49,649 nt of DNA from Myxococcota bacterium (lineage in GTDB: Bacteria > Myxococcota_A > Bradymonadia > UBA4248), in assembly GCA_045643185.1 (NCBI GenBank), contig JAZUKH010000083.1, positions 1-49,649 of the forward strand. The letters are read 5' to 3'. Below are positions 1,604 to 42,438 of this stretch, piece by piece. The notes under the pieces are model-generated. The model was not told the origin of the DNA, ran no database searches, and saw nothing but the letters and a program-made list of their open reading frames with translations. Positions within the stretch are counted from its first letter, which is position 1; each line of letters begins with the position of its first letter. A program made the position numbers and the translations under genes.

Positions 1604-1719
1604 GGCCCTGCCAGGCGAAGGGGTAGCGGCGTATTTCGTATTTCTGTAGAGACGTGTGGTCCACAAGTCTCTACAGAAATACGAAATAGCCGCGTAGGGG
1701 GAGACTTCCCCCTTCCCAA
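1604..1719 (+). repeat. Family-1 intergenic hairpin element, copy A, with nested GTAG-type REP at 1646-1674
   Basis: GGCCCTGCCAGGCGAAGGGGTAGCGGCGTATT-[variable palindrome]-AATAGCCGCGTAGGGGGAGACTTCCCCC; same flanks at 11231, 13460 and 31334; internal 22-bp perfect inverted repeat. Confidence 0.92.
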
Positions 1720-1754
1720 GCGATCAAAGGGCGATCAAAAAAGCGCCGACAAGC

Positions 1755-2402
1755 TTAGCGACCGCTACGGAGGGCTTTCGAAAACCAACCGCCGGTGCGG
1801 CCGTCGATCTCAGCGGTGATCTGCTGGATCTGGAGTTCGATCTGCAAACGGGCCATGACATCGAGTTCGGAGTCGGTATCAACTTGAACCTGAAGCGCAC
1901 GACGTTTGAAATAGAGGTCGGAGATTTCTTTGATGAGTTTATTGCGGCTCGTCGCCGAGGAAGCCATGGCTTTGTAGACGTCCAACTGTTCTTTATTGAA
2001 CACGAGGCCGGAAAGTTCCCATTCGGCGTGGATCTTGTGCTGATCGTAATCCTGTTCCTCAATGTAATCGGTGTTGACAGTCTGAGTCAGGTTCTTGATG
2101 TCATCGGTACCGCCGTACGTGGTCTTGGTTTGAGGACGATCGGTGTCACGATAACGCCCCGTAAACTCGTAAGAGAGTTTTTTGGGAAGGGCTTTGGAAC
2201 CAGCCGCACGTTTGTACATGCTTTCGAGACGATCACCATTCAAGCCGGAGTAATCCAAAGCGGCATTGATCGTTTCGGCAGCGGTAGGTTCATTTTTGTA
2301 GTGCGCGAGAATCTCTGCAGAGGTCTCTTCCTGAGCGGAAGCAATCATCGGCGTTGCGATAAGACCAATACCGAGGGCAAAAGATACGAGGATGCGTTTC
2401 AT
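1755..2402 (-). CDS. Secreted protein, single TolC/OEP-repeat-like domain (tentative)
   Basis: Signal peptide (MKRILVSF...ASA-QE); GGAG 7 nt before the ATG at 2402 (ORF track starts at 2414); clear similarity to the C-terminal domain of 2453..4486. Confidence 0.8.
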   Translation of the reverse strand: MKRILVSFALGIGLIATPMIASAQEETSAEILAHYKNEPTAAETINAALDYSGLNGDRLESMYKRAAGSKALPKKLSYEFTGRYRDTDRPQTKTTYGGTDDIKNLTQTVNTDYIEEQDYDQHKIHAEWELSGLVFNKEQLDVYKAMASSATSRNKLIKEISDLYFKRRALQVQVDTDSELDVMARLQIELQIQQITAEIDGRTGGWFSKALRSGR

Positions 2403-2452
2403 GATGTTCTCCATGGAAGGTGATTCATTCGAATCACGAAAAATCGGTAAAA

Positions 2453-4486
2453 TTATATGAAATCTTTCGGCTTGAAGTAACCGCCGGTCATGTAATAGAG
2501 CTGAACTTCTAATTTTTCGATCTGCAGATCACGTTTGATATCGTTTTTGAGGTTTGGACGACGTTTAAGAGACTGCATTTGCAGTGCATGACGTTTATTG
2601 AACGCACGCGTGACCGCATAAATTATTTTTCGACGTTGAGTTTCCTGCTGAACGTAAAGTTGATCGAGCGTGATCTCTTGTTTGGTATACTCGTCGAAGT
2701 TGAGGTTCCAATGCGCCATGATCTGCCAATAACTGACAGTGCTGTGGTTCTGATTCCAAGTGGGCACGTCGGACCAGAAATCGTTATTTTTGAAAGTGAT
2801 GACGCGTTGAGCGCGATCGGTCACCTGCGGTTTATAGACGTAGTCAAATTTAACATCTGGCAGGACCATGGAGACCCACAAACGGCTTTTCCAGAGATTA
2901 TCGGAGCCCTGATCGAGTCCGTAGAGTCTGAGTGCCGCTTGAATAACGTCGCCTTCTGAGGGTTCCTGGGACCAAAGTCGTTTAAGGTAGTCGAGTTTAT
3001 CAGGATTGCTGAGTTTACCTCGGTTGCGGGCCGCGACCATGACGCCCTGATTCGTGACCATAATGGCGGCATTGGTGCGGTCTTTGGAAGGCGACAAAGT
3101 CATGTGACGCGTCAATTCGCCGAAAATGCCTTCATCGTGACAGAACCAGCCATGTTCGCCCAATTCGTAAACGGCGAGTTCCGTTCGCACGATGGGATGC
3201 GACGCGTCTTCGCCGGGTACGAGGTTGATCTGACGAAGCGGCTGAGTGCTGAACGGCATTCCGAGCACGCGTTCAAAACGAACGCCGTCAAAGAGATAAA
3301 GATTCGACTCCGTGATGAACATACTGTTATTCATCGCAGTCATGTCGAAGTCGACGATCATTTCACCAGAAAGCACGGGAATATTGAAAGCCTGGAGTTG
3401 TTTGCCTTCGACACTGTACGTATAAATGCCTTCGGTCGACCCGATTACGACTTCTCGATCACTGGTGACGAGAACTTTGAACACGGCACCGGGCACGGGC
3501 ACATCATTCCAGGTTTTACCAGCGTCCTCTGAGATCCTCAGCACGTTCAGACCACCGATAAAGAGCGATCTGCCATCCGGGCTCAACGCGCCTGCAAACA
3601 GCGGCTGACCATCTTGAGCCGTCAAAACGGGCTTCCATGACTTGCCTTTATCTTTGGTCATCAACAGAGCATCCGAGGTCACGGCATAGGTCGAATTCCC
3701 CTTATTGAAGAACTGCCAAGCCGCCTTGGTCTGGGCGAGCATATCGAGCGCAGCTTCCTCGGTCGCACCGAGCGACAGCAAAATGCGGTAACGATTGATA
3801 AGATCCTGATTATTCAATTCAGACAGGTCTTTATCGTCGTCCACTTCCTCTTCTTCCTGGTCGAGCGACGAAACAAGACCGTTATCATAAGCGACTGTGC
3901 TGAGGTCGAGCGAGATCTCGTAGTTTGAAAGCTCACTGATGTCATCGGTGTGCTTGGCACTCAGAATGTCATCATCGTCGAGCGTATCCATGATGGTCTC
4001 GGTAAAATCCGCTCCATAAACCGACTCAAGTTCATCCTCGATCAACGTGCGTTTTTTGTCGATGATCTCGCTGTCATCAAACGCGACATTCTCTCCTTTC
4101 GCCAAAGTCGGCACGTCTGAGCTCATCGAATACACGGGCATCCAAGTCTCACCAGCGTCGTTGCTGACCTGAATGAAGTCTACGCCACCGGCATAAAGCA
4201 CCTTTGTGCTTTGTGGATCTTCATACACTGTAATGACTTCGTCATTGAGATCGACAAAATCCTGAGTCCAGATCCAGGCACCTGTCGTCGAGTGGTCTTG
4301 AGACATTCGAGCCGAAAGTTGCTGAATATCAAAACCAGGCGCAGTCACAGCGGACGCCCCGTCATCGCCACTCATTGCAGCGTCTGCCATCTCCGGTTCC
4401 ATCATCGAATCCTGAGCGTACGCGCTGATTCCACAACAACAAATCATCAGCGACAGCAACCAACTTATCGGATTAGGGTGTTTCAT
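2453..4486 (-). CDS. Secreted BNR/Asp-box beta-propeller protein with C-terminal domain paralogous to 1755..2402
   Basis: Signal peptide ending AYA-QD; Asp-box motifs SNDAGETW, TKDKGKSW, SEDAGKTW; acidic insertion; C-terminal EP..I.AAL..GL...LP...W.L...TGG.F domain. Confidence 0.85.
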   Translation of the reverse strand: MKHPNPISWLLSLMICCCGISAYAQDSMMEPEMADAAMSGDDGASAVTAPGFDIQQLSARMSQDHSTTGAWIWTQDFVDLNDEVITVYEDPQSTKVLYAGGVDFIQVSNDAGETWMPVYSMSSDVPTLAKGENVAFDDSEIIDKKRTLIEDELESVYGADFTETIMDTLDDDDILSAKHTDDISELSNYEISLDLSTVAYDNGLVSSLDQEEEEVDDDKDLSELNNQDLINRYRILLSLGATEEAALDMLAQTKAAWQFFNKGNSTYAVTSDALLMTKDKGKSWKPVLTAQDGQPLFAGALSPDGRSLFIGGLNVLRISEDAGKTWNDVPVPGAVFKVLVTSDREVVIGSTEGIYTYSVEGKQLQAFNIPVLSGEMIVDFDMTAMNNSMFITESNLYLFDGVRFERVLGMPFSTQPLRQINLVPGEDASHPIVRTELAVYELGEHGWFCHDEGIFGELTRHMTLSPSKDRTNAAIMVTNQGVMVAARNRGKLSNPDKLDYLKRLWSQEPSEGDVIQAALRLYGLDQGSDNLWKSRLWVSMVLPDVKFDYVYKPQVTDRAQRVITFKNNDFWSDVPTWNQNHSTVSYWQIMAHWNLNFDEYTKQEITLDQLYVQQETQRRKIIYAVTRAFNKRHALQMQSLKRRPNLKNDIKRDLQIEKLEVQLYYMTGGYFKPKDFI

Positions 4487-4614
4487 GTATCTCTGTGCAC
4501 TCCGGATTAAGACTTTGCGTCAAGACTCGCAAATGAGCAATTTCACCCTAGACTTTACCACATGCGCCATCCTTTTCGTAGATTGTTTTTTGCCCCCTGC
4601 CTCAGTTTTTGAGC

Positions 4615-4658
4615 AAAAAAAACGACAAAATCGCCGTTTTCACGGCGATTTTTTCGTT
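4615..4658 (-). terminator. Intrinsic terminator after 4676..8131
   Basis: AAAATCGCCGT-TTTC-ACGGCGATTTT hairpin with flanking A/T runs, just past the stop codon. Confidence 0.65.
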
Positions 4659-4675
4659 GTTGAATCACTTAACCA

Positions 4676-7600
4676 CTAACCGCGTCGACGACGCAAAGGC
4701 ACGAGCCCGACGAGCGCCGTGAGCGCGATCCACCAGGGCGCATGCCCCGTGGGGGCTGACGGAATGGCACGACAGGAACCACCACGCGCGTCATGACCGA
4801 CAACCTCGTTCGAAGGCACTTCGTTTTCGATCGTGATCTCAATGTTATCCACATAAGCCTGAGAATCGTCAGTAAACATCACAGCTTCGAGGCGATAGTT
4901 GCCATCAGGCAGATAGGCATCCTGCGTCGCGTAGTCACCCTGAGACACGAGGCGGCAGTACCAGGTACCATCCGCACGCACCTTGGTCGTACACATGGCA
5001 GCAATCTCTTCAGCAGCCTTAGGATCTTGGTCTCTCAACGTGAGATTAACGACGTTATCTTTGATCTCACGCGATTCAGCCCAGGCTTCGCCTGAAACGA
5101 TAAGTCCTTCATAAGCATCGATCTTATCGCCATTCAACGGTGCCGTGATCGTCACGCGAGCATCATCCTGAGCAATGATCTTGATCGGATCACTCTGCTC
5201 GCTCGTGAGGTCACCATCGACCCACGTCGCGCGCAACGTGTATTCACCAGGCTGAATCGAATAAACAGGCATGCAGCTCCAATCGCCGTCAGGGTCCGCA
5301 TTCACCATGCAGAGCAAATGTGCCGTCGTATCGTCCTCTTTGTAGTACCAGACGTAGACATCCCCTTCGCCACTCGGCGAAACGCCCTTGATCAACGGCT
5401 GAAGCGTCGTCGTTTCGCCATCAGCCGGCGTCGTAATGATCGGCGCCTTCACTTCGACAGGCGGATCGACCGGTGGATCAACAGGTGGATCGACTGGCGG
5501 ATCAACAGGTGGATCAACAGGCGGTTTTTCGGCTTCAATGACGACCGTAACGATGCCTTCCGACACGTCGTTAGCCTCGTCGGTTACCGACACTTTGAAC
5601 TTGTAGGATCCCTCAGCCACGTTCTGATCCACCACGAACGCCGTGCTGGACGCAGTGACCGATGTCAAAATGCCGTTAAGTTGATCGACATTCTCCCAGT
5701 TGTAGCTCAACGCACTCGTCGCGCCGTCGGGATCATACGAGGCACTCGCGTCAAGAAACACGAGATCACCCGGTTTAGACATAATCAATTCCTGATCAAG
5801 TACCACGACCGGCGGTTCATTCTTCCAGGTCGAAGGACGAACGATGACACTGGCCGTAGCCGAGGCCGACGCCCCGTTCGGCGTCATCGCCGTAAACTTG
5901 ATCTCATACGTGACCGGTTTGGCGTCAGAATTCACATGCAACCACGTGGCCTGTTCAGTCGACGCCTCAAAATTCGCTGAGAACGACGGCGTGACTTTGG
6001 ACCAAGCAAACGTCATGTCATCGCCATCCGGATCATACGCTTCAGCAACGACGCGCACATCCATGCCTGCTTCGACCGTGAATGGGGAACCGACAATGTT
6101 GACGACAGGCGGCTCGTCGAACTTACAAACGCCAAGCTTGCACTCAGCTCCAGCCTGGCTGCAATCCGCATCGCTGTAGCACGCCACCATACAGGCTTTG
6201 TGATCCAGACTGCACTTGTAATCGCCACACGAAGTGGCGTCAGACAGACACTCACCCGCTTTGCACAAGGGAACATACAGGTTGTCATCTGAGCAACTGA
6301 TAACACCACAGGACGTGCCATCCGCCTTCGGAATGCCTTCGCACTGCGCGACCGGATCACACACCGCGCGTTCGTCTATACACGGGTTCGTATTCGAACC
6401 AGTCTTGCAGACGAACGGCTGGAAATCAAAGTTATCCTTGTTGGGATCACAAACCAGACAACGGTTATCCGCCGAAATTTCGCCTTCGTCATAGCAGACT
6501 TCGTTGACCAGGCACTTGTCAGCCGTATAACACGGCGTACTACGCGAATAGAAGACCTCCACTCGGCCTGCCGACGCTTTCGACAGATCAAATTGCCCCG
6601 GCGAGCCAATGATCAGGTCATCCCAACCCGAACCATCGAGCTGAGCAGTTAAAATACTCGCCCCGTGATTCCCCGAACTATGCATATCACTGTGATGCCA
6701 ATATGGGGCTTTGCTAAATATCGTGCCATCTTTCGTCCCAAGATAGACGTACAACTGACCTTTTTCGCGTGGCGACGCATTAAAATCACCAGCCGCAGCA
6801 ACGACCAGGTCATCCACACCATCATGGTTCATATCGGTAACGACGACATTGGAACCAAAGTGACTATTCTTATCGCCATTCGTGATCTCAAGGTCACCAA
6901 CCTTTTCAAAAGGCTTACCAGCCCCCTCATTGATGAAAGAACGCACACGACCAGCATACAAATGCGGTTTGCCATCAACAAGCTGAACGCCGCTGTAATT
7001 CGGCGCCCCGACCAACAGATCGAGTCTGCCATCGCCATTCAGGTCTTTGAAAGCGACGCTTGTGATCATTTCCCCCATCTGGCTTGAATCAACCAGGCTC
7101 TGTTCACCGATCAACGGGTCGCGCGATTGAACGAGCTGGCCCAAATCTTTGTCATATTGGAAAAAGTAGAGCGCACCTTCCCCCTTGTCGCTGTAAATCT
7201 CCGAATCGACCACATAGCCAGGTGCCGTCACGACAATCTCTTTTGAACCGTCACCATTAAGATCGGCAACATACAGACGGCGACCAAACTGGGTCGCATA
7301 TAAGTCCGCAGACGTATCCAGCATAACATGGGTATCCGACGGAAGTTCCCCAGCTTTTTCAGGGCTGGCCACATTCATAAAATGTTTACAAATGTCAAAC
7401 GCTACGTGCACACCGCGCTGCGTCGGGCCTTCGAATGCCGAATAGATCAGGTCCATCCTACCATCGCCATCCACATCCGCCATCGTCATGGCCTGACCAA
7501 CACGCATCTTCGACGTCGAGCTCAACAAGGTCGCGTAGGGTACCACCTTGCTCTCATCGCCCTCCAATGAGTACCCAAATGCGATCACGCCGCCGGCACT

Positions 7601-8131
7601 CTTTATCGTACCATTGTCCACGGTTGGCGCAGACGCGATGACCAAGTCACTTATACGCGCATTGCCACCTAGCCCCGGACAATAATCGCCAGAGATCACA
7701 CTACGACCAAAAGAATTCTTGCCTGTACTTTCTGACAGCGAAACATACAGAGAAGGCACTGCGTCCATGCCATCGTCATGCACAAAATAGCCGTAAACAC
7801 CGCCCACGACCTTGTTATCCGTCGAATTGTCGTTGACAGCCCCCCCCTGACCGACCCACAAGATCTTTGACGCCTTCGCGCTCTTCACATTCGCCAGGGT
7901 CATCGATAAGCCATAGTAACCATTCGAAATGATATCCGAATCGTTCACGCCTTTAAGCGAAGTCGAATCTTCAGCACTGACCAGCCATGGACTGCCTTCC
8001 GCACTGCCAAAGATCGCGTGCGTCTGAACAGCTAGATCCAGATTCTGGTCATCATCCACGCCATTTCCGTCCGAACATCCAGCCATGACGGCAAGCGCAA
8101 GACAAATATTCAAAAGGTTGACTCTTTTCAT
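4676..8131 (-). CDS. Large surface protein: FG-GAP (integrin-alpha-like) repeats, Cys-rich region, PKD/Ig-like domains, MYXO-CTERM-like tail
   Basis: Lipobox-like MAG-C; repeated D(V/L/M)xGDGxxDL and G(A/S)P motifs; DASASYDPDG PKD-like motifs; AP.IT.P Ig-like starts; C-terminal GGSC-linker-hydrophobic helix-RRRRG. Confidence 0.88.
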   Translation of the reverse strand: MKRVNLLNICLALAVMAGCSDGNGVDDDQNLDLAVQTHAIFGSAEGSPWLVSAEDSTSLKGVNDSDIISNGYYGLSMTLANVKSAKASKILWVGQGGAVNDNSTDNKVVGGVYGYFVHDDGMDAVPSLYVSLSESTGKNSFGRSVISGDYCPGLGGNARISDLVIASAPTVDNGTIKSAGGVIAFGYSLEGDESKVVPYATLLSSTSKMRVGQAMTMADVDGDGRMDLIYSAFEGPTQRGVHVAFDICKHFMNVASPEKAGELPSDTHVMLDTSADLYATQFGRRLYVADLNGDGSKEIVVTAPGYVVDSEIYSDKGEGALYFFQYDKDLGQLVQSRDPLIGEQSLVDSSQMGEMITSVAFKDLNGDGRLDLLVGAPNYSGVQLVDGKPHLYAGRVRSFINEGAGKPFEKVGDLEITNGDKNSHFGSNVVVTDMNHDGVDDLVVAAAGDFNASPREKGQLYVYLGTKDGTIFSKAPYWHHSDMHSSGNHGASILTAQLDGSGWDDLIIGSPGQFDLSKASAGRVEVFYSRSTPCYTADKCLVNEVCYDEGEISADNRCLVCDPNKDNFDFQPFVCKTGSNTNPCIDERAVCDPVAQCEGIPKADGTSCGVISCSDDNLYVPLCKAGECLSDATSCGDYKCSLDHKACMVACYSDADCSQAGAECKLGVCKFDEPPVVNIVGSPFTVEAGMDVRVVAEAYDPDGDDMTFAWSKVTPSFSANFEASTEQATWLHVNSDAKPVTYEIKFTAMTPNGASASATASVIVRPSTWKNEPPVVVLDQELIMSKPGDLVFLDASASYDPDGATSALSYNWENVDQLNGILTSVTASSTAFVVDQNVAEGSYKFKVSVTDEANDVSEGIVTVVIEAEKPPVDPPVDPPVDPPVDPPVDPPVEVKAPIITTPADGETTTLQPLIKGVSPSGEGDVYVWYYKEDDTTAHLLCMVNADPDGDWSCMPVYSIQPGEYTLRATWVDGDLTSEQSDPIKIIAQDDARVTITAPLNGDKIDAYEGLIVSGEAWAESREIKDNVVNLTLRDQDPKAAEEIAAMCTTKVRADGTWYCRLVSQGDYATQDAYLPDGNYRLEAVMFTDDSQAYVDNIEITIENEVPSNEVVGHDARGGSCRAIPSAPTGHAPWWIALTALVGLVPLRRRRG
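5453..5524 (-). repeat. In-frame 12-bp tandem repeat, (PPVD)5-PPVE linker
   Basis: Six units visible in DNA and protein, with synonymous divergence. Confidence 0.9.
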
Positions 8132-8279
8132 ACAAACTGTTCCTCGTTTTTACCCCTCAAGGAGGGTACTATACTTTGACAGTCTAGCATTTTGCATCAC
8201 GACATTGCAAAAACGAGCGGATTTTTTTAACCGAAACAGGTGATATCTCAGACGCGGAAGCTTTGTCTGGTCATAAATT

Positions 8280-8387
8280 CAAAATCTCAACCGTAGCGAA
8301 GCCGAAGGCAAGCAGGCTGAGATTGGGCGAGCAGGCGCGATTTGTTCAAAGCCGAAGGGTAGCGACGTAACGTGGTACGTCGTCGCG
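8280..8387 (+). repeat. Family-2 intergenic element, copy 1 (108 bp)
   Basis: Inverted copy at 40993-41100 with 8 substitutions by manual alignment; AATCTCARCC...GGCTGAGATT stem enclosing GCCGAAGGC. Confidence 0.9.
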
Positions 8388-8388
8388 T

Positions 8389-9570
8389 CTAATTGTTGAT
8401 GACCGTCACGACGACTGGAATCGTCAACTTGCTTTTTCCACGTTTGACCTTGACCTTCACGGTATCACCCGGTTTGTACATATCCAACGCATTGTAGAGC
8501 GTATCGTAGTTTTTGACCGGCTTGTCATCGATACCAATGATGATGTCGTTGATAAAAATGCCGTTCTGCGACTGAGTCAGTCCCTGCAAACCGGCTTTTT
8601 CAGCGGGCGACCCCTTGCCGACCGACTGAATGATGACGCCATTCACGCCGTTTTGACGCGCGATCTGGTCGCTGACGACGCTAATGCCGATCCCGATCTG
8701 TTCCGCATGACCGGTTTTGATGATCTGCGGCACAACGCGCTTGATAAACGTGTACGGAATGGCAAACCCAAGACCTGCCGAGGCGCCGGATTCCGAAACG
8801 AGCATGGTGTTCATGCCAATGAGCTGAGCGCTTGAGTCGAGCAGCGGGCCGCCCGAGTTGCCCTGGTTGATCGCCGCGTCGGTCTGAACGATGTCACGAA
8901 TCTTAACGCCACCGACACCAAGCATCTCGCGGCCAAGTGCCGACACAATGCCGGACGTCATCGTGTGGTCAAAACCAAGCGGATTCCCGATCGCCACTGC
9001 TTTTTGACCAACCTGAAGCTGATAGCCCTCTCCCGGAACGCGAATGGGCGTCAACTCACTGGCAGGCGCCTCGATCTTAATGACCGCGATGTCCTTTTTG
9101 GGCTCGACGCCCACAACTTTCGCGTCATACGTCTTTTTGTTGAACAACGTGACCGTAAGGCTCGACGCATCGCGGATCACGTGATAGTTCGTCACAATGT
9201 GGCCCTGCTTGTCCCACACGAAGCCAGACCCAGCGCCGGCATCGACTTCCGTCGTACGAGCCGGTTCAAACGACCAAAATCCGCCACCCGTGCGAATCTT
9301 TTGACGTTGCGTCACAAAAACCGTCGCCGGTGCCGCTTCGGCAAAAATGTCGATCGAATTCAACTCATCTTCGGTCGGGTGAAGGTGCGTGCGTCGACCT
9401 GACTTCACGGCATAGCCCTGACCAAAATTCGGGCCCTGATCCGTCACATATTGCGCCAAAATCACTGAATCGGACGCAGCACCTCCCTCGTCTGACCATT
9501 CAGACGGCTGAGACGAGCTACATCCGGCCAACATCCATACCAAGAATACAAAAAATAAGTGCTTTTTCAT
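8389..9570 (-). CDS. HtrA/DegP-family serine protease (trypsin + PDZ), lipoprotein
   Basis: GSGF, VTNYHV, DIAV, QTDAAINQGNSGGPL motifs; C-terminal PDZ (GSPAEKAGL); lipobox LAG-C; ATG at 9570 overlaps the upstream stop (ATGA). Confidence 0.93.
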   Translation of the reverse strand: MKKHLFFVFLVWMLAGCSSSQPSEWSDEGGAASDSVILAQYVTDQGPNFGQGYAVKSGRRTHLHPTEDELNSIDIFAEAAPATVFVTQRQKIRTGGGFWSFEPARTTEVDAGAGSGFVWDKQGHIVTNYHVIRDASSLTVTLFNKKTYDAKVVGVEPKKDIAVIKIEAPASELTPIRVPGEGYQLQVGQKAVAIGNPLGFDHTMTSGIVSALGREMLGVGGVKIRDIVQTDAAINQGNSGGPLLDSSAQLIGMNTMLVSESGASAGLGFAIPYTFIKRVVPQIIKTGHAEQIGIGISVVSDQIARQNGVNGVIIQSVGKGSPAEKAGLQGLTQSQNGIFINDIIIGIDDKPVKNYDTLYNALDMYKPGDTVKVKVKRGKSKLTIPVVVTVINN

Positions 9571-11207
9571 TCGTCGTTTCCTGTGATGCGCGTTGAAGTG
9601 TCTTGTAAACGCCAAAGTTCAGCGAGCGTGCCGCTGACGGTAAGAAGATATTTGCCGGTCGCATCGAACGCAAGCGCCGAAACCGGCTGATCCTGGACCG
9701 AACCGATTCGGTCGACGATCTCTCCTGCCCCATTAAACACGAGCGCCCCCCGAACTAATCCCACCGCAAACAACTGCGACGCAGAAGAGATCGACGTAAG
9801 GACCAGTTTTTCGAGCGGCGCCGACAAAAGCTTGTCAGACGGAATATCGACAAAGAGATTCAGCTTGTTCGTCTCCAAAAACATGACGCTTTTATCGTCC
9901 GAAAGGGCGACATGACGCGTGACATTCGGCACCATCACGATGCCATGTTGCGCGTAAACGTTCATAAACGGCGCCGAAACCAGCATTTTTTCGGCATTGA
10001 CGCCCAAAACCGTCGAGCCATCCGTTGTGATGCCGACCCACCGCGGTTCTTCCGGACGCACGTCGTAATAGGTGTACCCCGTCGACGCCGGGTCAACAAC
10101 GTAGCGCCGTTCGGGCGTCAGCACGCGCAAAGTGCCGCTGTACGCGTCAAACGCCATGCCGATCACGTGCTCGACGTCGCGCACGCGTTCCGTCACCGTG
10201 CCACGCCCCGTATCGAGCAACCACACAGACTTGCTCTTCTGATCAGCAAACGCAATAAAACCCTCACGATACGCCACCGCCTGAACACGACCCAGCACCA
10301 CAGGCCAGGCCCCCACGCGCTGACGCGCATCCGTCGCGAGCGAGTCACGCAAAGCCACCGCGATCTCACGATACGCCGAACGATGCTCTTTAGAAATGTA
10401 CTGGTCAAGGTCAAACGCCGCCTCGCTCACGCGGTGCGAAAACAGGTCCATCACCGCTCGATGAAACCACAACTCGCCCTCAGGCACAAAGAACGCACTG
10501 TCAAAAAACGTCAGCTTCGGATCGATCGCCACGCCGTCAAAAAAACGCGCCTGCGCCCGTGCCATGTCGCCATCGCGCACCCACGCCACCACCTGACCAA
10601 AAATGGCATGCGGATTCTTCGGATCCAGCGCGATCGCCTCCTCGTAGATCGCGATCGCCTTGTCAGGATGACCCACGATCATCTCGATCTCCGCCAAATT
10701 GCCAAGAATCGCCGACTCCGCCGACGCATTGGGCGCCTCACACTGCTCGTACGTCGCCGCAGCCTCGGCATATTGCCCCACCTTCGTCTCAAGCGTCGCC
10801 TTAAACAAACACAGATCAAAGTCCTTCGCCCATTTTTCGTCGTCCTTCAGCATCGTCTTGACGAGCCCCAGCGCCTCATCAGGCAAGTCATTGCGATCCA
10901 TCAGCTGCGCACAAATGAACGGAACCTCTTTCAGTTCGGGCGCCACGGCCATCGCATCGCGACAATGCGCCAACGCCGACGCAAACTGCTCTTTTTTGAG
11001 CGCCTCCGTCGACAATTTGATCGACTCGGTCGCCGCTTTCATCCGCTCCGTCTTGTTTTGCGGCTTCGACTTCCCTTGTTTTGCGCTTTCAGCCTTCACA
11101 CTCGCCGATTTCACGGCCGGCTTCGCCAAAACCGCCGTCGGACAAAGACTCGCCACGCAAAAACTCAGGATCAGGCCAAAAATTAGGGTGAATACACGTT
11201 GTGACAT
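9567..11207 (-). CDS. Secreted TPR protein with C-terminal beta-propeller (WD40-like)
   Basis: Signal peptide from MSQRVF; TPR motifs (AIAIYEEAIALDPKNP); C-terminal VSALAFDATGKYLLTVS...LW. The ORF-track extension to 11360 merely runs through a repeat element. Confidence 0.8.
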   Translation of the reverse strand: MSQRVFTLIFGLILSFCVASLCPTAVLAKPAVKSASVKAESAKQGKSKPQNKTERMKAATESIKLSTEALKKEQFASALAHCRDAMAVAPELKEVPFICAQLMDRNDLPDEALGLVKTMLKDDEKWAKDFDLCLFKATLETKVGQYAEAAATYEQCEAPNASAESAILGNLAEIEMIVGHPDKAIAIYEEAIALDPKNPHAIFGQVVAWVRDGDMARAQARFFDGVAIDPKLTFFDSAFFVPEGELWFHRAVMDLFSHRVSEAAFDLDQYISKEHRSAYREIAVALRDSLATDARQRVGAWPVVLGRVQAVAYREGFIAFADQKSKSVWLLDTGRGTVTERVRDVEHVIGMAFDAYSGTLRVLTPERRYVVDPASTGYTYYDVRPEEPRWVGITTDGSTVLGVNAEKMLVSAPFMNVYAQHGIVMVPNVTRHVALSDDKSVMFLETNKLNLFVDIPSDKLLSAPLEKLVLTSISSASQLFAVGLVRGALVFNGAGEIVDRIGSVQDQPVSALAFDATGKYLLTVSGTLAELWRLQDTSTRITGNDE

Positions 11208-11230
11208 AAAAATTAACCTGTTTTGTCTGT

Positions 11231-11351
11231 TTGGGAGGGGGAAGTCTCCCCCTACGCGGCTATTTGGCAATGACGCGGTAGAGACGCCCGTACCGGACGT
11301 CTCCACCGCGTCATTGCCAAATACGCCGCTACCCCTTCGCCTGGCAGGGCC
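11231..11351 (-). repeat. Family-1 element, copy B, with nested REP at 11278-11306
   Basis: Reverse complement matches the copy A/C/D flanks; lies 10 bp after the acyl-CoA dehydrogenase stop. Confidence 0.92.
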
Positions 11352-11361
11352 AACAACCACG

Positions 11362-12510
11362 TTACATCAATTTAGTCAGGTTCTTTTGCAGGGCCTCGTT
11401 GGTGCCTCCACCGATCGACAGCAAGATCGCGTCGCGGTGCAGACGCTCCACCGGGTAAGCCTGGCTGTACCCGTTCGCCCCAAGCACCTGAATGGCGTTG
11501 CGGCTCACAACTTCGCCCATCTCGGCACACATCAGCTTGACCGCGTCGGCATCCATCGACGCCGTCGGCACTTCGTCCAACAAGTCTTCCAACACGTTGT
11601 ACAAAAAACACCGACATGCGCGATACTGAGCATAAGATTCAGCAACAAGTTTCTGAATCTGTCCAAAATTCGATATTGGCTTGCCAAATGCGTATCGCTC
11701 GCGCATGTATTTTTTCATGATGTCAAGGCAGGTCTTGGCTAGCCCGCACGACTGGGCGGCCAGTCCAAGACGCTCAATGGCGAGGTTGCGAAGCATGGGA
11801 CGAAGCCCCTCGTGAAGTTTACCGACGAGCGCGTCGGCAGGCAGATGGCAATGGTCAAAGTGCAGCGCACCCGTCGGGCTTGAACGCATACCGAGCTTGT
11901 GTTCCGCTTCGCCGCGGCTAAAGCCATCGACATGGCTTTCAACCAAAAACAGGCTCAAGTCACGACGCTCTTCACCTGTACGTGCATAAACGAGAAACGC
12001 GTCGCCAACGGGCGCGTTCGTGATCCACATTTTTGAGCCATTCAGCTCAAACGAGCCATCGTCCAGCTGCGTCGCCGTCGTCGTCATGCCAAGCACGTCG
12101 GTACCGGCATTCGGCTCAGTCATGCCCATGCCCGCGATCGGACGAGTTTTAAGGATCTCCGCGTGTCGCGCGGGTATGGGCGACTGACTCGCGTGCCACG
12201 TGCGATAGAGTTGGTGCGTAAAAAGCAGTTCCTGGGCGAGGTAACTCATGGCAAAGGCCGGATCAACCTCACTCAGTGCCTCAATGACCATGACGGTCGC
12301 GGCTTCGTCCAGGTCGGCACCATTCAATGATTCGGGCAACGTCATGCCCGTGATGCCCAACTCGGTCGACAGACGCGCAAACAGCGACCGGTCAAATGTT
12401 TCCGTCTGGTCGCGTTCCGTCGCCTGGGGCGCCAAATACGCGTTGGCCCAGTCACGCACGGTGGCCTGCAACGTCACATGGATTTCTGACCGATCAAAAC
12501 GAGAAGACAT
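11362..12510 (-). CDS. Acyl-CoA dehydrogenase (isovaleryl-CoA dehydrogenase-like)
   Basis: GMTEPNAGTD, LNGSKMWITN, KLGMRSSPT, ERLGLA, R.AFGKPI..F, IQVLGANGY, RDA.L.SIGGGT.E motifs. Confidence 0.92.
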   Translation of the reverse strand: MSSRFDRSEIHVTLQATVRDWANAYLAPQATERDQTETFDRSLFARLSTELGITGMTLPESLNGADLDEAATVMVIEALSEVDPAFAMSYLAQELLFTHQLYRTWHASQSPIPARHAEILKTRPIAGMGMTEPNAGTDVLGMTTTATQLDDGSFELNGSKMWITNAPVGDAFLVYARTGEERRDLSLFLVESHVDGFSRGEAEHKLGMRSSPTGALHFDHCHLPADALVGKLHEGLRPMLRNLAIERLGLAAQSCGLAKTCLDIMKKYMRERYAFGKPISNFGQIQKLVAESYAQYRACRCFLYNVLEDLLDEVPTASMDADAVKLMCAEMGEVVSRNAIQVLGANGYSQAYPVERLHRDAILLSIGGGTNEALQKNLTKLM

Positions 12511-13285
12511 TGAGTTCTCCTTTGTTGACGCGTTGATATTGCGCCGTCACCGTCGGTGCAAAAGCCGACAGCGATGACTGTGAAAAACTCGGCTGCGGTG
12601 ACAACTCGAGCGTATTTTCATCAACTTGTTTGAGGTCGAGCGCCACATCCAAGTCGCTTTTAGAAACGATGTGGATGCCCTCTTCCGCGATCTTGCCACT
12701 CGCCGCGATCACGAACGCCGGCTCGACCGAGCGAATCGTCACCGTCAAAGCGTCGTCCATGCGATAGATCTCGAGCGACTGACCGCCCGACGCACGAAAA
12801 TAACCCTGAAATCCGTTCGACGTCTCGACCAGAACTGCGCGGTTGACCTGTTCCAGGATCTTCTCAGCGCGCATCTGCGTGGCCTTGGCAAAAGCCTCGT
12901 GAATATCGACGCCATTTTTGACGAGCGTGTTCATGTCAACACCACGTCCCTGCGATTCCCACTGCGTTTGCGCTGCTTTAAGCTGTTCAAACGCGTCGGC
13001 AGGCAAGATCGACTTGGCATACTGCATGGCATCCGTGACGGCCTTGCTCGCCTCGTTGCCTTGCTCCACGCGGTCGAGTATCTCCGTCCGGTCTTCATGC
13101 TGTTGCGCGACTTCCTCGTCCGTGAGCTCATGCTCACCGGTCACGACCATGGCCACTTTTTCCTCGCGATCCATCTGGTCGACCGGCTTTTGCGTTTTGC
13201 AGCCAAAACTCACAAAACACATAAATAAGGTTGTAGTCACAAACAAGATTCGCTTAATTTCGCATTTAGCCGAAGTTATTTTCAT
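12494..13285 (-). CDS. Hypothetical lipoprotein
   Basis: Start MKITSAK with upstream GGAG; lipobox SFG-C; stop overlaps the start region of the dehydrogenase. Confidence 0.75.
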   Translation of the reverse strand: MKITSAKCEIKRILFVTTTLFMCFVSFGCKTQKPVDQMDREEKVAMVVTGEHELTDEEVAQQHEDRTEILDRVEQGNEASKAVTDAMQYAKSILPADAFEQLKAAQTQWESQGRGVDMNTLVKNGVDIHEAFAKATQMRAEKILEQVNRAVLVETSNGFQGYFRASGGQSLEIYRMDDALTVTIRSVEPAFVIAASGKIAEEGIHIVSKSDLDVALDLKQVDENTLELSPQPSFSQSSLSAFAPTVTAQYQRVNKGELNVFSF

Positions 13286-13385
13286 AAAACCTGTTATTCT
13301 CCAAAGTTTACGTTTAACGACCAGCGTCAAAGCGCGGCCATGCCGCGCCTGGTCAGAACGCCTGTCTGAGCGACAACACATGGAC

Positions 13386-13415
13386 AAAAAAACGCGGCAA
13401 CCTGAAGTTACCGCG
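13386..13415 (-). terminator. Intrinsic terminator
   Basis: Minus strand CGCGGTAAC-TTCAG-GTTGCCGCG followed by T7. Confidence 0.6.
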
Positions 13416-13459
13416 CTTTGATGAAAACGTATGTGAAAACGCGCCATAGCACGTTTTTG

Positions 13460-13580
13460 GGCCCCGCCAGGCGAAGGGGTAGCGGCGTATTTGGCAAAGA
13501 CGCGGTGGAGACGTCCGGTCCGGGCGTCTCCACCGCATCATTGCCAAATAGCCGCGTAGGGGGAGACTTCCCCCTCCCAA
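13460..13580 (+). repeat. Family-1 element, copy C, with nested REP at 13505-13533
   Basis: Near-identical to copy B in the opposite orientation; 11 bp from the phosphatase stop. Confidence 0.92.
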
Positions 13581-13591
13581 AACATCAGCAT

Positions 13592-15445: not shown

Positions 15446-15522
15446 TGCTTTCCTCTATAGTTTTTGCACCGAAATTGTGCGGTGATACTTACTAAGTTTT
15501 CTTTTTTGATGTTGGGATGTTT

Positions 15523-15942: not shown

Positions 15943-16093
15943 ACTATCTCCTTCTTTGGCTTCCGTTGTCGTTGGTTGAGACAATGCCTAAACATAACCA
16001 TTTTGATATTATACGCTTTTCGAACCAATCCGGTCAAGGCATGTCGAATCGACTTCACACCAACTTCTAAACCGCTTTATCCTCAAAAATTCT

Positions 16094-19103: not shown

Positions 19104-19242
19104 GGGCTGGCGATTGCATTCGCCAGCCCGCGCGGCTATGGCAAAAAAAGCACGCTTCGCGCCTTTTTTGCCATACGCCGCGCCTTGATCTGGGGCCGGC
19201 TATTGCATACGCCGTCCCGCGCGGCTATGGCATACGCCGCGC
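19104..19242 (-). repeat. Cluster of four abutting hairpins, three of bulged-G type
   Basis: Hairpins at 19104-19129, 19130-19183, 19193-19218 and 19219-19242; the minus strand reads CGGC-G-TAT...ATA-GCCG in the last three. Confidence 0.85.
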
Positions 19243-19275
19243 ACTCACACACCAACTTGGATGAAGGAAAACAGA

Positions 19276-30300: not shown

Positions 30301-31132
30301 TCCAGATACCAAACCCGACCTCACCCTGTTGTCCGACTTTGCCATTATAATCTTTGATACCGTATTTTGCGTCGCTTTCGTCGGACTTAGAAATTTTGTT
30401 GACGCCACCGACAAAACCATCGACGCGATCGACTTTATAATCAGCCATAGCGACGAAACCAAATTTCGCTGCCGTTAGGTATTTATGTAAAGCCCCGTCG
30501 TTTTTATAACTTTTTTCAAATTCTTCCAAATCGCCATCGAAACCATATTTAAGGTTTCTAACGGTCGTTCGGCTACCACTTTTGGAAGACGTGGTGCAAT
30601 CGTCCCCATCATCTTCAGAATAACCGTAGTTATCACGAGTATTTGTGTTAGAAAAATTTACACAATTTTTACATATATCAACATTATGATAATCACACCT
30701 TCCTTTGCCAGTATAATGTTTTGCACAAACAAAAACGGTTTTGTAGTCGCAGATACCATTGGAGCATTCAAGCACTTGTCTCGGATAACGAGTAACTTTA
30801 TATAAAGTGTTCGCATCTGAACCTATTTTATATTTATTACAGTTATTATTTCCTCTTTCAGAACAAATATTACATGAATTCGTTGGATTATCGTCTTTGG
30901 GCGTCAGCACGGTTCCCGTTAACTGCTGAAGTGCAGACGTAAAACGGGTATTTCCATTATTACCGAAAGACGCGTTCATGGAAGACGAAGTATCGAACGC
31001 GATGAAAACGACGGGCTTGAGGAGACTGTTGACGGAGTCCTGAGCCTGGGCGTCTTGGGGTGCCGCGGCGAGTCCTGCAGAACTGGCGGCGATCATGCAC
31101 ATCAAGTAGGCGAGTGAATTACGTTTATTCAT
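24308..31132 (-). CDS. pilY1: PilY1/PilC-like type IV pilus tip adhesin with vWA domain and large Cys-rich inserts
   Basis: Signal peptide; vWA MIDAS FDTSSSM and AMTDG; PilY1 propeller motifs NDGMLHAF, GEEVWAFMP, TP..ADV, W..ILVGG, YYALDVTDP.KP..LWE, IYVGD..G.L.RID; RBS AAGGAG before 31132. Confidence 0.85.
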   Translation of the reverse strand: MNKRNSLAYLMCMIAASSAGLAAAPQDAQAQDSVNSLLKPVVFIAFDTSSSMNASFGNNGNTRFTSALQQLTGTVLTPKDDNPTNSCNICSERGNNNCNKYKIGSDANTLYKVTRYPRQVLECSNGICDYKTVFVCAKHYTGKGRCDYHNVDICKNCVNFSNTNTRDNYGYSEDDGDDCTTSSKSGSRTTVRNLKYGFDGDLEEFEKSYKNDGALHKYLTAAKFGFVAMADYKVDRVDGFVGGVNKISKSDESDAKYGIKDYNGKVGQQGEVGFGIWNAVINGPSPTIYPTPSDDDEIVRKSNLALINNLRSYTLTSMQTPVTGYLEDLGYMFNNESKVDQGLLKQPKSGTKYSNSSQIEYLTDPQWSCRKKAVIAMTDGSPAQYDRSAKIANGKRVSEMDKVVSSLRQKNSNMTIYSVLYAQGEKDITKFGPGRSTYNKNASDVGVMQCLDNISWDGSKNDCVDGVMNLIAWKGGTCHKYGHIGDLIDPDDKAAFDKYLTAYIKGKYDGDERKVDPCYYNAIEGDALRKSITQILNELSEGYVSKSKMVTTTAVGKQTTKYNSKPTNGWYNIYSGYNVALGAIKRTDLQREAFVCRKGSFEFDKNLSIDMAKKLRTRLEGVQNSAGNYEGGCQSDGNCITNRAIFVGDYSSTSESLTKGRYALYPEIIHISNEKAGQIQYKPDEKSTKLDTYKFFDKNVGFEDALKKTKETYITSGDSAFEDYIISPYECVTNVDCIAKMNAIGDSSALYTCDQGKCIPETNGDYCTSTCSGNQVCLNTQCRDKGGACSKHEDCSDNEVCHLGSCVTGVLNNGDIRDLVSSIPLGTIEYASPVVVPPPSYMYKSTEYMSFKNQYGNRDTMLYMPTNDGMLHAFVLGKNDTDADYHKLFTNSPKLETPSESNQQNEGEEVWAFMPKRVLPKIHELTKFEGTPMINATPVTADVRVPVRDSAGHVTYEWRSILVGGFRDADRGYYALDVTDPEKPEILWEIDHQWQPGTAVDYPPIDEEKVITKDKEAGLIDKYPFLRMGKSYPEAVITNVIVNNVVEPVAIISGGMGKGGDDITGKAVYIVRLKPADKDHLLVKAFNFDTQITGTPAVFPAGFNAIARLIYVGDEKGALHRIDISGDFDDWDQTALNYDGDKVVPIFDPNNIKALNPDNSSYEKMTYKPAVSALTTTGYPDIQIAFGSGDSSNVSIGAQSLNYVAIMVDHYNATDKKYHLNNLYPEATNASTRNLKPLVLVFNPTPGIHSTDGKLQTFETDIGKQLFEIVVSKAVNPHDIENDEINTCQNNGGCDQPQSDGQCPSCCGQGTELCSKNCYEEGALITCNIEANCFQCNGIDDKSGCDASCNSSMCDRTKCQGCDFCPCGNECRNKHDELCASVCDMSGELCREDCGKKLSENQQLCADEVTKCEEQHKAEKDQKVQACKNDCKTRNYDEDISQCVDECKDANQVDENTVWQCRGEGKEYESKNSCIRNCSQDSGKCKQKLGPGSYCVKSVTKEKNWWLFKTESEKMEKWSSKEACENECKHVGKCEYLWDGPFTKKYFCVTEPLNPEGFLSCLVNNIVQEGKDCDYTLCLPKTNTTGDPNKYQSCLTDDYEKKCKQNAIDMCQKACEDIPIESCDDESCENSAMSEYNTCGDACATTQHACDEKCDGEMDICKQACVDDRDKCLEDHFDEQCFKTYTSCLQKLNDLSKIKPEDQDCSRCYNYCKPYDTGFAWKCGEGGGGEDKRIFDGTCVGEEGKNRELDKCGKNDRDASVCRNTVNEKYEADKAKRDAYCGGQDCHTTEYVDWQRCKHSDGSSTQYEFLDCILYCTDEAPADNGVISSSAKHLYSSGCTYQKADASYLNCDNELFRECVDKCDPEAIDVCTDNYISCACDGVQTPDTDDDYTGKKVVCHWPGNELDGQDMTGLCPGDACPCVEHGECNTGGNGTVCKDGSSDHVYDDAHAYQCNENGKCANSECIKTQSFWCEFADNPRYEGKAYTIDNNASCKSMCVLPHYEICTDDCQDNKSEEYCSPLVAKGDCYKSDVAADCAKSCGKCVACAPSDPSAATERWGGPGSRERAAKRDAGGKDDDNLVSIRPRQKLMGAPFTYNFKTYFPTYNAPDLDKDEAQVVCDSGFASIWYADRYIGKSRWSVKTTGVQNQSQFDDVTGSVDHGKEASSFKNKVFANGGFINLGAGTIVYGLSMTTQSTCYDDENKTTSVAAPMLVAQTGMAAGVEGATTNASHKNGTTNKKDITPGQSTDVEVMAINEEAIQAQAQVLSWASVYE

Positions 31133-31333
31133 AAGTATATGCTCCTTCGCGTGCAAACTGGCATTGGCTCAATTTGCGGCGTGTTGTTTATAACGCATTA
31201 GCTTTTGGGGCTTGAACTCGATTTATCACCTTGAACAGGTGACAATACCCCAAAGGGACGTTTTAACGAATTTTGTTCGTTCAAGCAAAGATATTGCAAC
31301 ACAAAAGGTTGAAATATAACAAATTGTGTCATT

Positions 31334-31409
31334 GGCCCTGCCAGGCGAGGGGGTAGCGGCGTATTGGCGAACGCCAATAGCCGCGTAGGGGGAGACTTCC
31401 CCCGCCCAA
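31334..31409 (+). repeat. Family-1 element, copy D (minimal form, no REP)
   Basis: Same flanks; the variable part is reduced to GGCGAACGCC; 7 bp from the kinase stop. Confidence 0.92.
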
Positions 31410-38612: not shown

Positions 38613-38717
38613 AAAAGACGCGTATTCGCGAAGCGAATAGCGTCTTTTCAAAACGCGTATCGGCGAAGCCGATAGCGTTTTGCGATCGCCGTATTGGCCG
38701 CAGGCCAATAGGCGTCG
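38613..38717 (+). repeat. Three abutting bulged-G hairpins
   Basis: AAAAGACGC-G-TATTCGC-GAA-GCGAATA-GCGTCTTTT; CAAAACGC-G-TATCGGC-GAA-GCCGATA-GCGTTTTG; CGCC-G-TATTGGCC-GCA-GGCCAATA-GGCG. Confidence 0.9.
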
Positions 38718-41174: not shown

Positions 41175-41228
41175 AAAACCGCCGCAGCAGAGACATGCAG
41201 ACCGCACGTCTCGACTGCGGCGGTTTTT
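41175..41228. terminator. Terminator-like hairpin with degenerate nested REP (41187-41215)
   Basis: AAAACCGCCGCAG...CTGCGGCGGTTTT; another decayed REP at 41131-41159. Confidence 0.7.
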
Positions 41229-41244
41229 AGTTCACGTGAGCCAG

Positions 41245-42072
41245 TTATCGGGCAAGTCCGATGATAAGTGAGAGCAGGACACCGTGTTGATCTTCACCGG
41301 AGTGACGGTGATATTCGTAGGTGTAACGAGCATCAAAGCCGATCTCGAATCCACTGGTGAGGAAGGAGATTCCGCCCCCGACCTGGAGACCGCCCTGAAC
41401 GACGCCGGATTCCCTGTGATGGTAATAATCATCAGGCAGGATGAGCGAGATACCGCCACCGACGAGGCCATAAACGTCGAGATTACCGTAGTCGAAGAGA
41501 TGCGCCTGGAGGTCGAGATATAACGGGACCCTGAGCAGCAATCCGTCGTAGCTGTATTCATTGAATAGATAATCGTTGACGAACTCAACAGAGATCCAGC
41601 GAACGGGTCGGATTTTGAAGTACCAGCCAACGCCGCCGCCGAAATCCGTGTCGGAAACATAAGTTCCGATGCCACGGAGTCCGTAACCGAGCGTGTAATG
41701 ATCATCTTCGGGCACAGGTGTAGCGATCATAGCGTCGAGCACGACATCATGGACTTCGTAGTGATGATGTGCGTGTGATGGCGGTGCCGGGCGAGGAGGG
41801 GCTGGACGAGCAGCGGGGGGGCGAGGCGCTGGTCGAGGCGACGGCGGGGCAGCATGACCAGGTCGACCAGCGGGCGGTCGACCGTCGCGCGTCAACCCGT
41901 TGGCGTCGAAGCCTGTCAACAGTGCCATATCGACGTTCAATGCGGCGTCAGAATCAACCAATTCGTCATAAGAAAACATCAGTTCGTCTGAGATCGCCGA
42001 CTGCGCAAAGGCACTATAGGGTGCCAACAACGCGAAAACCAGTAATGCACATAAACAAGATAGCTTTTTCAT
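41245..42072 (-). CDS. Outer-membrane beta-barrel protein with Pro-rich N-terminal segment
   Basis: Signal peptide ending AFA-Q; PAPRP-rich linker; about 8 Gly/aromatic amphipathic strands (YGLVGGGIS, GLQVGGGISF, IGFDARY). Confidence 0.78.
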   Translation of the reverse strand: MKKLSCLCALLVFALLAPYSAFAQSAISDELMFSYDELVDSDAALNVDMALLTGFDANGLTRDGRPPAGRPGHAAPPSPRPAPRPPAARPAPPRPAPPSHAHHHYEVHDVVLDAMIATPVPEDDHYTLGYGLRGIGTYVSDTDFGGGVGWYFKIRPVRWISVEFVNDYLFNEYSYDGLLLRVPLYLDLQAHLFDYGNLDVYGLVGGGISLILPDDYYHHRESGVVQGGLQVGGGISFLTSGFEIGFDARYTYEYHRHSGEDQHGVLLSLIIGLAR

Positions 42073-42408
42073 ATTGTTTGCCTTTAATCAAACGTGAAAT
42101 GGCGTGACATCAATGTGCCACAAAAGCCGGTGTATATCAAAAATCATACCAAAAACGAGACTTAGTTGGTTACTATTCAGCCGGGAAATCACATTTTGTT
42201 GTATTCTTGATATTTTGTTTTGGAGCAGGCATGGGCCTGCGGCACGCAGGGGGTTCGCAGGGCGCGCCCTTTTTTGTCGACCGTGTGGAACTCGCTTCGC
42301 TCAAACATGCCAACTTCAGGAACTATTAAGGCTGAACAAGTAACCTTAGCTGAGCTATGTGGCGCCAGAAAATAAATCGGCGAATCGCTGTGCGATCGAC
42401 GATTTGCG

Positions 42409-42438
42409 TCGGCCGTATTCGCGAAGCGAATAGGCCGA
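42409..42438 (+). repeat. Single bulged-G hairpin
   Basis: TCGGCC-G-TATTCGC-GAA-GCGAATA-GGCCGA; core identical to the hairpin at 38613 with a different outer stem. Confidence 0.85.

Follow-up and report, generated by a model that had tools for sequence, protein, structure and literature searches.

Bulged-G hairpins of the window and of the genome

Contig JAZUKH010000083.1 from the draft genome of a Myxococcota bacterium (GCA_045643185.1), a stretch of 49,649 nucleotides that was analysed whole and is referred to here as the window, carries between its genes a family of imperfect hairpins in which the 5' arm of the stem bears a single extrahelical G, followed by TAT on the same arm and faced by ATA on the other. 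The genome itself (G000, of which the window is contig C83) consists of 3.76 Mb in 282 contigs, with 51% G+C and a completeness of 97.6%. A first-pass annotation of the window had listed at least 11 such hairpins, and all 11 were found in their places, both by reading the sequence and by a script that required a perfect outer stem of at least 4 bp, then G, then TAT...ATA (Table 1; the script starts 19197 and 38687 correspond to 19193 and 38683 in the annotation). The remaining script output in the window comprised three spans bridging adjacent hairpins and one chance match at position 8103.

The genome was examined by a strict scan, which required a perfect outer stem, one bulged base on the 5' side, TAT...ATA, an inner stem of at least 5 bp and a loop of at most 12 nt, and by a looser catalogue, in which the inner part had to fold as one hairpin. 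The catalogue contains 562 bulged-G hairpins, most commonly 28 to 34 nt in unit length, the most frequent unit being GCGGC-G-TATTCGC-GAA-GCGAATA-GCCGC. Genes were called crudely as longest open reading frames (ORFs), which start too early and cover 88% of the genome; 485 of the 562 hairpins are intergenic by these calls and a further 53 fall in the 150 nt at the start of ORFs called too early, which together make about 96% intergenic. Classification of the gaps agreed with the annotation in placing the hairpins in gaps of all three kinds (tandem, convergent and divergent) and on both strands. The annotation had also left room for a match to an already catalogued family; no Rfam family matched at the gathering score, and the four matches obtained at E ≤ 1 were at chance level, none of them to a repeat family.

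Conservation of the junction

The only invariant part of the hairpins is the junction C-G(bulge)-TAT/ATA-G, around which the stems and the loop vary while their pairing is kept. In the strict scan the bulged base was G in 412 cases, versus 5 cases of A, 5 of C and 4 of T, and matches free of a bulge numbered 94 over both strands, equivalent to about 47 sites; C precedes the bulge in 99% of the hairpins, and G follows ATA in 99%. The G bulge noticed in the window is therefore conserved genome-wide.

Covariation was judged by regular-expression scans with control cores and shuffles. The pattern CGTAT-N11-ATAG, searched without any pairing requirement, gave 207 matches (160 distinct), in which the 8 flanking stem positions were Watson-Crick paired in 0.70 to 0.93 of the sequences, versus 0.33 to 0.76 in 500 shuffles, none of which reached the observed pairing. 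Three or four types of base pair occur at each stem position, and control cores (with A, T, C or no bulge, or reversed) were flanked by pairing of about 0.16 to 0.34, the background level. The covariation of the outer stems that had been read from a few copies in the window is thus upheld by a test in which pairing was not presupposed.

The apical loops differ between the two strands. Read on the strand with the bulged G, they are GAA in 48 hairpins, AAC in 43, AAA in 43, GCA in 19 and GGA in 18, as against TTC in 2 and TTT in 13. The six window copies in which GAA or GCA triloops had been noted on the G strand (38613, 38649, 38687, 42409, 19197 and the apex of 19130) were all verified, and the coupling of loop to strand extends to the whole genome. 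This asymmetry fits recognition of one folded strand. Hairpins in tandem gaps are sense in 113 cases and antisense in 143, and no rule relating orientation to the direction of flanking genes was found for either of the two forms described below. Single stem mismatches are G:T in 22 cases versus A:C in 13, with no clear sign of selection on RNA; this ratio and the independence of orientation from transcription together point to DNA rather than RNA as the form in which the structure matters. A possible rule based on the replication strand was also considered: orientation correlates weakly with contig GC skew (rank correlation, rho 0.20), and the rule was dropped because the pooled counts are flat (84/82 and 114/130).

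Composite and simple forms

From flank logos and listings, about half of the hairpins were seen to sit inside a conserved composite element, named type A, of approximately 100 to 130 nt. It consists of a left arm, a GTAG-footed bulged-G hairpin, and a right arm with a G5/C5 hairpin of its own, according to the consensus ..GT...gGGCCCtGCCAGGcGAAGGGGTA-GCGGC-G-TAT[centre]ATA-GCCGC-GTAGGGGGAGACTTCCCCCtccc-aaaa, and the length of the centre varies between about 17 and over 70 nt. Matching of both arms located 293 type A elements. The G-TAT...ATA centre is present in 256 of 261 type A scaffolds, which makes the hairpin an integral component of the element; no usable empty scaffold was found among the 261. 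Contig ends fall inside many type A elements; the ending of so many contigs in these repeats explains part of the fragmentation of the assembly.

The remaining hairpins, type B, are simple, have variable outer stems and build direct head-to-tail arrays: neighbours at most 40 nt apart have the same orientation in 122 cases and the opposite orientation in 1. Sizes of one, two, three, four and five hairpins were found in 345, 73, 15, 4 and 2 arrays, respectively. Adjacent array members are identical in just one of 107 cases, and the commonest spacers between them are none at all (15 cases) and GCGT (15 cases).

Table 1. Bulged-G elements of the window (positions in nucleotides of the whole stretch).
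Form	Position	Strand	Hairpins	Features
Type A	1603..1717	+	1626-1693	left arm GGGCCCTGCCAGGCGAAGGGGTA, right arm GTAGGGGGAGACTTCCCCC
Type A	11233..11351	-	11256-11329	inverted relative to neighbours 1603 and 13459
Type A	13459..13578	+	13482-13555	
Type B, direct array of three	19130..19242	-	19130-19183, 19197-19214, 19219-19242	divergent gap
Type A with short centre	31334..31407	+	31356-31384	
Type B, direct array of three	38613..38714	+	38613-38648, 38649-38682, 38687-38714	convergent gap
Single type B	42409..42438	+	TCGGCC-G-TATTCGC-GAA-GCGAATA-GGCCGA	GCGT precedes; upstream of HSP90-family gene

The first type A element of the window contains a 23-bp inner stem that holds the palindrome GTAGAGAC...GTCTCTAC, and its predicted DNA fold (1603..1717) has an energy of -43.4 kcal/mol and a z-score of -10. 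The centre of the hairpin at 13482 is 87% like that of its inverted neighbour at 11256, and the first hairpin of the convergent array is flanked by an A-run and a T-run. A palindrome free of any bulge, GGGCTGGCGA-TTGCAT-TCGCCAGCCC (19103-19129), directly adjoins the array in the divergent gap. An ORF of 2282 aa occupies 24308-31156 on the minus strand.

Distribution and turnover

Scans of the genome and its relatives, such as the first-pass annotation had suggested, gave about 560 hairpins in G000 and, for a core pattern, matches in 14 of 16 relatives of the same family, which belong to three of its five genera. With G000 included, type A is present in 14 of the 17 family genomes; G013 has just two matches to the core pattern, and G003 and G004 have none. 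The pattern is present in none of 24 genomes from other families of the order and class, and in none of 392 other genomes sampled from the phylum; a reversed-pattern control gave no match in the scan of family, order and class and one match in the scan of the 392. Type A counts range from 0 to 223 per genome, and the public records in which type A was found are metagenome genomes of uncultured Myxococcota or Myxococcales (some labelled "Proteobacteria"), several of them from ruminant guts. The family is thus restricted to one lineage, comprising three genera of one family of uncultured gut Myxococcota.

Turnover was assessed by calling genes in 426 kb of the genome of another species of the same genus (G001) and matching them to G000. 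Among 89 conserved gene adjacencies, the strict scan found an element in G000 only in 13, in G001 only in 5 and in both genomes in none, which makes 0 of 18 occupied gaps shared; inspection by eye added an imperfect type A element in G001 for one of the 13 gaps, and in one orthologous gap the two genomes carry type A scaffolds in opposite orientation. For the window elements at 1603 and 13459, no counterpart was found in the orthologous gaps of G001 or of another relative, G002. The 148 long type A centres include near-identical clusters of 27 and 10 copies in addition to 90 singletons. The non-shared occupancy and the near-identical copies fit mobility, and together they show gain and loss over the divergence of species in one genus, as well as recent copying.

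A REP-type reading and its difficulties

We lean towards the reading that these hairpins are a lineage-specific superfamily of repetitive extragenic palindromic (REP)-type repeats, which would have been multiplied and turned over in intergenic DNA. As short palindromic units of high copy number and extragenic location, they have the general properties of REPs. The foot of type A, defined as three unpaired bases and the first base of the stem, is GTAG in 187 of 224 elements, and GTAG also follows the stem in 178 of 224. An unpaired GTAG-like end motif is thus a property of type A and of no type B hairpin (0/328); the type B foot is CGTC in 41 and CGTG in 20 of the 328, CGTC or GCGT lies within 6 nt of the hairpin in 72, and the commonest tail is CGCC (48), not CCA. 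Most REPs were sorted by Di Nocera et al. 2013 according to two tags, GTAG and CGTC (PMC3733652); in that account the CGTC superfamily has an unpaired 5' CGTC, a stem of 8 to 9 bp that starts with A/T pairs, and a CCA tail, and no dedicated transposase is known for the class. The annotation had called the hairpins distinct from GTAG and CGTC REPs, a view that the feet contradict: since both tags are present, the family does not stand outside this scheme. The REP nuclease of E. coli reads a 5'-foot GTAG together with a bulge in the stem, and deletion of the mismatched bulge abolished binding (PMC3479197); foot and stem bulge are both present here, and were therefore counted in favour of a REP-type reading.

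A trans-acting protein would, in this reading, recognise the constant junction (a C:G pair, the extrahelical G on the 5' arm, and then T:A, A:T and T:A pairs) on one folded strand, most likely as single-stranded DNA. Such a protein might be a RAYT-like HUH-Y1 enzyme or another structure-specific enzyme, and in G000 the elements would be either orphaned or served by a protein that was not recognised. The first-pass annotation had similarly proposed a structure-encoded site in single-stranded DNA, in the manner of integron attC sites. The structural definition of the family, the strand-asymmetric loops and the precedent of the bulge in the E. coli REP nuclease speak for such a site; the likeness to attC was not sustained. 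The family itself, its junction, covariation, strand asymmetry, lineage restriction and turnover are shown by the data; single-strand recognition, the class of enzyme and the mode of spread are what we infer.

Several results weigh against a REP-type reading, among them those of the search for a mobilising enzyme. Profile searches of G000 gave no match to Y1_Tnp (PF01797) despite its 97.6% completeness, and none to the IS110 DEDD domain, TnpB, DDE_Tnp_1 or rve; miniature elements of the IS200/IS605 type presuppose a Y1 TnpA encoded in the genome, and in G000 neither Y1_Tnp nor TnpB was matched. Y1 genes occur in 12 of 17 genomes of the family and were not found in the hairpin-rich genomes G000, G007, G008 and G016, of which G007 is 99% complete. 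Where Y1 genes do occur in relatives (24 matches, of which 20 loci were examined), bulged-G hairpins are present on at most one side of each examined gene, and the genes inspected are flanked by other palindromes or inverted repeats. A RAYT gene between copies of the family, the arrangement of a REPtron, was accordingly found neither in G000 nor at the 20 loci of its relatives. Draft metagenome assemblies often lose multi-copy genes, and for this reason the absence of a mobiliser from G000 is not proven.

The same reading has to contend with three further points. The covariation can also stem from arm-to-arm templated repair in palindromes, or from the spread of sub-families, without any selection on structure. 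Comparison of filled and empty orthologous gaps between G000 and G001, of the kind that the annotation had recommended between strains, succeeded in showing that occupied gaps are not shared and failed in its other aim: intergenic DNA is too diverged for a target site, a target duplication or an insertion event to be defined. Lastly, head-to-tail arrays and the kilobase-scale alternation described below are unlike known REP or REPIN families. Closer strains were sought in a metagenome scan with the acyl-CoA dehydrogenase that adjoins two elements, in which the best matches were at most 40% identical.

The tyrosine recombinases found in G000 number two: one scores 343 bits as XerD, which exceeds the cut-off, and the other is XerC-like but, at 294 bits, falls short of the cut-off of 335; against the integron integrase model TIGR02249 they score 132 and 115, compared with a cut-off of 265. 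A possible Y1 coding remnant in G000, obtained by tblastn with ORFs from the Y1 loci of relatives, was rejected, as the matches proved to be a translated DNA repeat upstream of the G002 gene. In G002 a RAYT-like gene is flanked by the inverted repeat GCGGCTGGAAGCCGC..., of which copies are present on the G000 contigs C228, C46, C257, C167, C281, C36, C71, C232 and C86; no RAYT gene was found in G000 despite these copies. Among the genes listed inside close inverted pairs of hairpins (30 pairs) are housekeeping genes and genes for surface proteins, a Fic-like and, by eye, a Cas1-like protein, and none of those listed is a transposase. The Fic-like and Cas1-like genes, identified by eye from translation only, lie at positions 7901-10681 of contig C13, where inverted hairpins at 7901-7929 and 9381-9417 flank the Fic-like gene and the second overlaps the over-called 5' end of the Cas1-like ORF.

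Alternating orientation

In a merged catalogue of 492 units, adjacent loci have opposite orientation in 207 cases and the same orientation in 62. The ratio is 84:11 between type A neighbours, 92:28 for A-B and 31:23 for B-B neighbours; by distance, the opposite share is 82% below 2 kb, 83% at 2 to 4 kb, 80% at 4 to 8 kb, 64% at 8 to 16 kb and 57% above 16 kb. Type A neighbours closer than 4 kb are opposite without exception (33 of 33). Hand counts among the listed elements of relatives gave opposite to same ratios of 15:6 in G001, 15:9 in G011 and 6:1 in G007. In 13% of opposite type A neighbours, more than among random pairs, the likeness of the centres exceeds the 95th percentile of random pairs. 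The excerpts of REP literature that were searched yielded no report of alternation on this scale. We know of no transposition mode that would yield it directly. Most likely the pattern reflects the loss of close direct pairs, either by deletion or by selection against pairs prone to deletion; the simplest explanation for such loss would be recombination between copies.

These orientations speak for a different reading, in which the hairpins would be sites of a site-specific, structure-reading recombination system by analogy with Xer/pdif or attC sites, rather than transposing repeats. The bulge and the asymmetric loop would give each site a direction, neighbours in direct orientation would be resolved or deleted, and inverted ones would persist. 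Besides the excess of opposite neighbours in the catalogue, its completeness among close type A pairs, and the same tendency among the listed elements of three relatives, the confinement of the tyrosine recombinases in G000 to XerD and an XerC-like protein agrees with this idea, as does the rule of alternating orientation among the pdif sites of Acinetobacter, which are substrates of XerC/XerD (PMC13141974). Two nested inversions distinguish the window from G001 and G002 between 8.4 and 20.3 kb, and a type A element is located at one of their four breakpoints in G000; the other three are without a member of the family, and no integron integrase is present. Elements are more frequent at synteny breakpoints between G000 and G001 (12/43) than elsewhere (5/93; p = 0.0005), yet among gaps of at least 200 nt the proportions are 12/27 and 5/18 (p = 0.35), and the enrichment was discarded once it had vanished under this control for gap length. 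On balance we consider a recombination-site reading improbable.

Relative to G001 and G002, the inverted blocks 8389-11360 and 17561-20304 are also swapped, whereas the orientation of 11362-17370 is kept; the breakpoint with the type A element is at 11233-11351, and two others have an ordinary terminator only, or no gap. Contigs from four public runs (Logan) were compared with positions 1-20000 of the window, and are too short and shallow (depth 3 to 8) to show inversions. Their apparent joints at elements carry other centres between the same arms and are therefore due to copies elsewhere in the genome that map by way of these arms; an opposite-strand joint (11316/13543), represented by a single contig with 32 nt on the shorter side, is indistinguishable from such mapping.

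A bolder version would make the hairpins directional sites of a chromosome-wide structure-reading system run by XerC/XerD or another enzyme, the approximately 490 units delimiting invertible and exchangeable modules. This seems to us most improbable; if true, it would constitute a chromosomal, hairpin-based counterpart of the dif modules of plasmids.

Gene ends and terminators

Host-selected structures such as terminators, protectors of mRNA 3' ends or sites for nucleoid proteins, immobile and kept gene by gene, would be another explanation for intergenic hairpins, and REPs elsewhere have been reported in such roles (PMC3733652). There is a mild excess of hairpins in convergent gaps, and 77 of 336 type B hairpins have an upstream A-run, which is a T-run after the hairpin on the strand with the C bulge; a gene ends at the T-run side in 51 of the 68 A-run hairpins that could be placed, compared with 56% of other type B hairpins. 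Some type B copies probably serve as terminators. The family as a whole does not have the form of an intrinsic terminator, however, as a T-run is present on the G strand in 6 of 336 type B hairpins and only the C-bulge-strand subset qualifies, while a T-run or A-run adjoins none of 226 type A hairpins. A host function also leaves the invariant bulged G unexplained and is difficult to reconcile with the lack of an orientation rule relative to genes and of shared occupancy (0/18 gaps) between two species of one genus. Ordinary intrinsic terminators coexist with the family in the window, which argues that this genome does not rely on the repeats for termination; two are located at 16541-16581 and approximately 17437-17470, each with a stem and a T-run, the second with an A-run as well. 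We regard a general host function as unlikely.

Nested palindromes and other repeats

Palindromes of the form GTAG...CTAC are present in 71 of 159 long type A centres, and bulged-G hairpins enclose 48 of the 102 perfect GTAG-headed palindromes that the genome contains. Growth in place, by which hairpins would enlarge from the centre through template switching or repeated insertion of palindromes into the apical loop and the family would be a by-product of palindrome instability around a founder sequence, accords with these counts, with a further conserved inner layer in genomes of genus g4 and with the near absence of identical neighbours in arrays (1/107), but it leaves unexplained the roughly 290 dispersed copies of the same 60-nt flanking arms and the near-identical dispersed copies, is compatible with a REP-type origin if taken as an added, secondary process and not as a competing one, and as a full account is very unlikely.

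A second palindromic family, GTAGAGACG...CGTCTCTAC, is GTAG-headed and REPIN-like, as for example inside 1647-1672; about half of its 77 perfect copies are nested in the apex of bulged-G hairpins. In many type A centres of the g4 genomes G007 and G011, a variable palindrome is surrounded by a second inner layer, TATGCGCGCAG...CGAGCACATA, which is conserved and imperfectly paired, so that three levels are nested. A different dispersed repeat of the window (8256-8390) ends in the palindrome GGGTAGCGACGTAACGTGGTACGTCGTCGC and has near-identical copies on contigs C124 and C133; public contigs reach a depth of about 79 there, compared with about 4 nearby.

Comparison with known repeat systems

REP-type repeats rank with the most frequent non-coding elements in bacterial genomes, and the means of their spread and the proteins that read them are known for very few. 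The present family offers a very clean recognition signature, in which one extrahelical G keeps its place at the junction and the rest of the hairpin is free to covary, and its GTAG-footed and CGTC-footed forms around one core bear on whether the two REP superfamilies are related. If the alternation reflects recombination between copies, the repeats would also shape gene order in these little-known gut bacteria. A text search of the literature for REPs in Myxococcota gave nothing relevant, and a term search of the RepRanger paper found no mention of the phylum.

Integron attC sites are recognised as folded single strands; their extrahelical bases are strand-specific, and their terminal structures vary. 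The hairpins share with them the strand-specific extrahelical base, the variable terminal structure and the direct orientation of array copies, unlike them having no integron integrase (the only tyrosine recombinases found are of XerC/XerD type) and no cassette genes between array members, and being dispersed among housekeeping genes; the analogy drawn in the annotation fails on these points. With the pdif modules of Acinetobacter they have in common directional sites that alternate along the replicon (PMC13141974). Those sites, in contrast, are 28-bp duplexes with two different 11-bp arms and a 6-bp spacer, borne on plasmids at a handful per replicon, whereas here there are about 490 chromosomal hairpin units, and alternation, at 77%, is strongly favoured without being obligatory.

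Resemblance to CGTC REPs consists in the CGTC foot of part of type B and in a stem segment that starts with A/T pairs. The tag here overlaps the G+C-rich outer stem and the tails are CGCC rather than CCA; the CGTC class, moreover, is found mainly as head-to-head dimers, mostly in Alphaproteobacteria (PMC3733652).

Like GTAG REPs, the hairpins are short, extragenic palindromes of high copy number with a stem irregularity and, in type A, a 5'-foot GTAG; they persist vertically in one lineage while differing widely in copy number between species, and like REPs in general they form sub-families with compensatory changes in the stem (PMC3733652). The nested GTAG...CTAC palindromes of type A centres resemble REPINs, in which two inverted REPs make one long hairpin; neighbouring hairpins do not, as 122 of those within 40 nt are direct and 1 is inverted. 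In known families close copies are head-to-head or tail-to-tail and head-to-tail pairs are "negligible" (PMC3733652), whereas here head-to-tail pairs prevail by 122 to 1. GTAG REPs differ further in the nature of the irregularity, which in the present family is one extrahelical G, always at the same junction well inside the stem, in the embedding of the type A hairpin between two conserved arms, and in their RAYTs, of which none was found in G000 and none flanked by bulged-G repeats in its relatives. Among known REPs this family is thus unusual in the bulged-G junction common to both of its forms, in the conserved arms that type A possesses, in its head-to-tail arrays and in the alternation of its loci.

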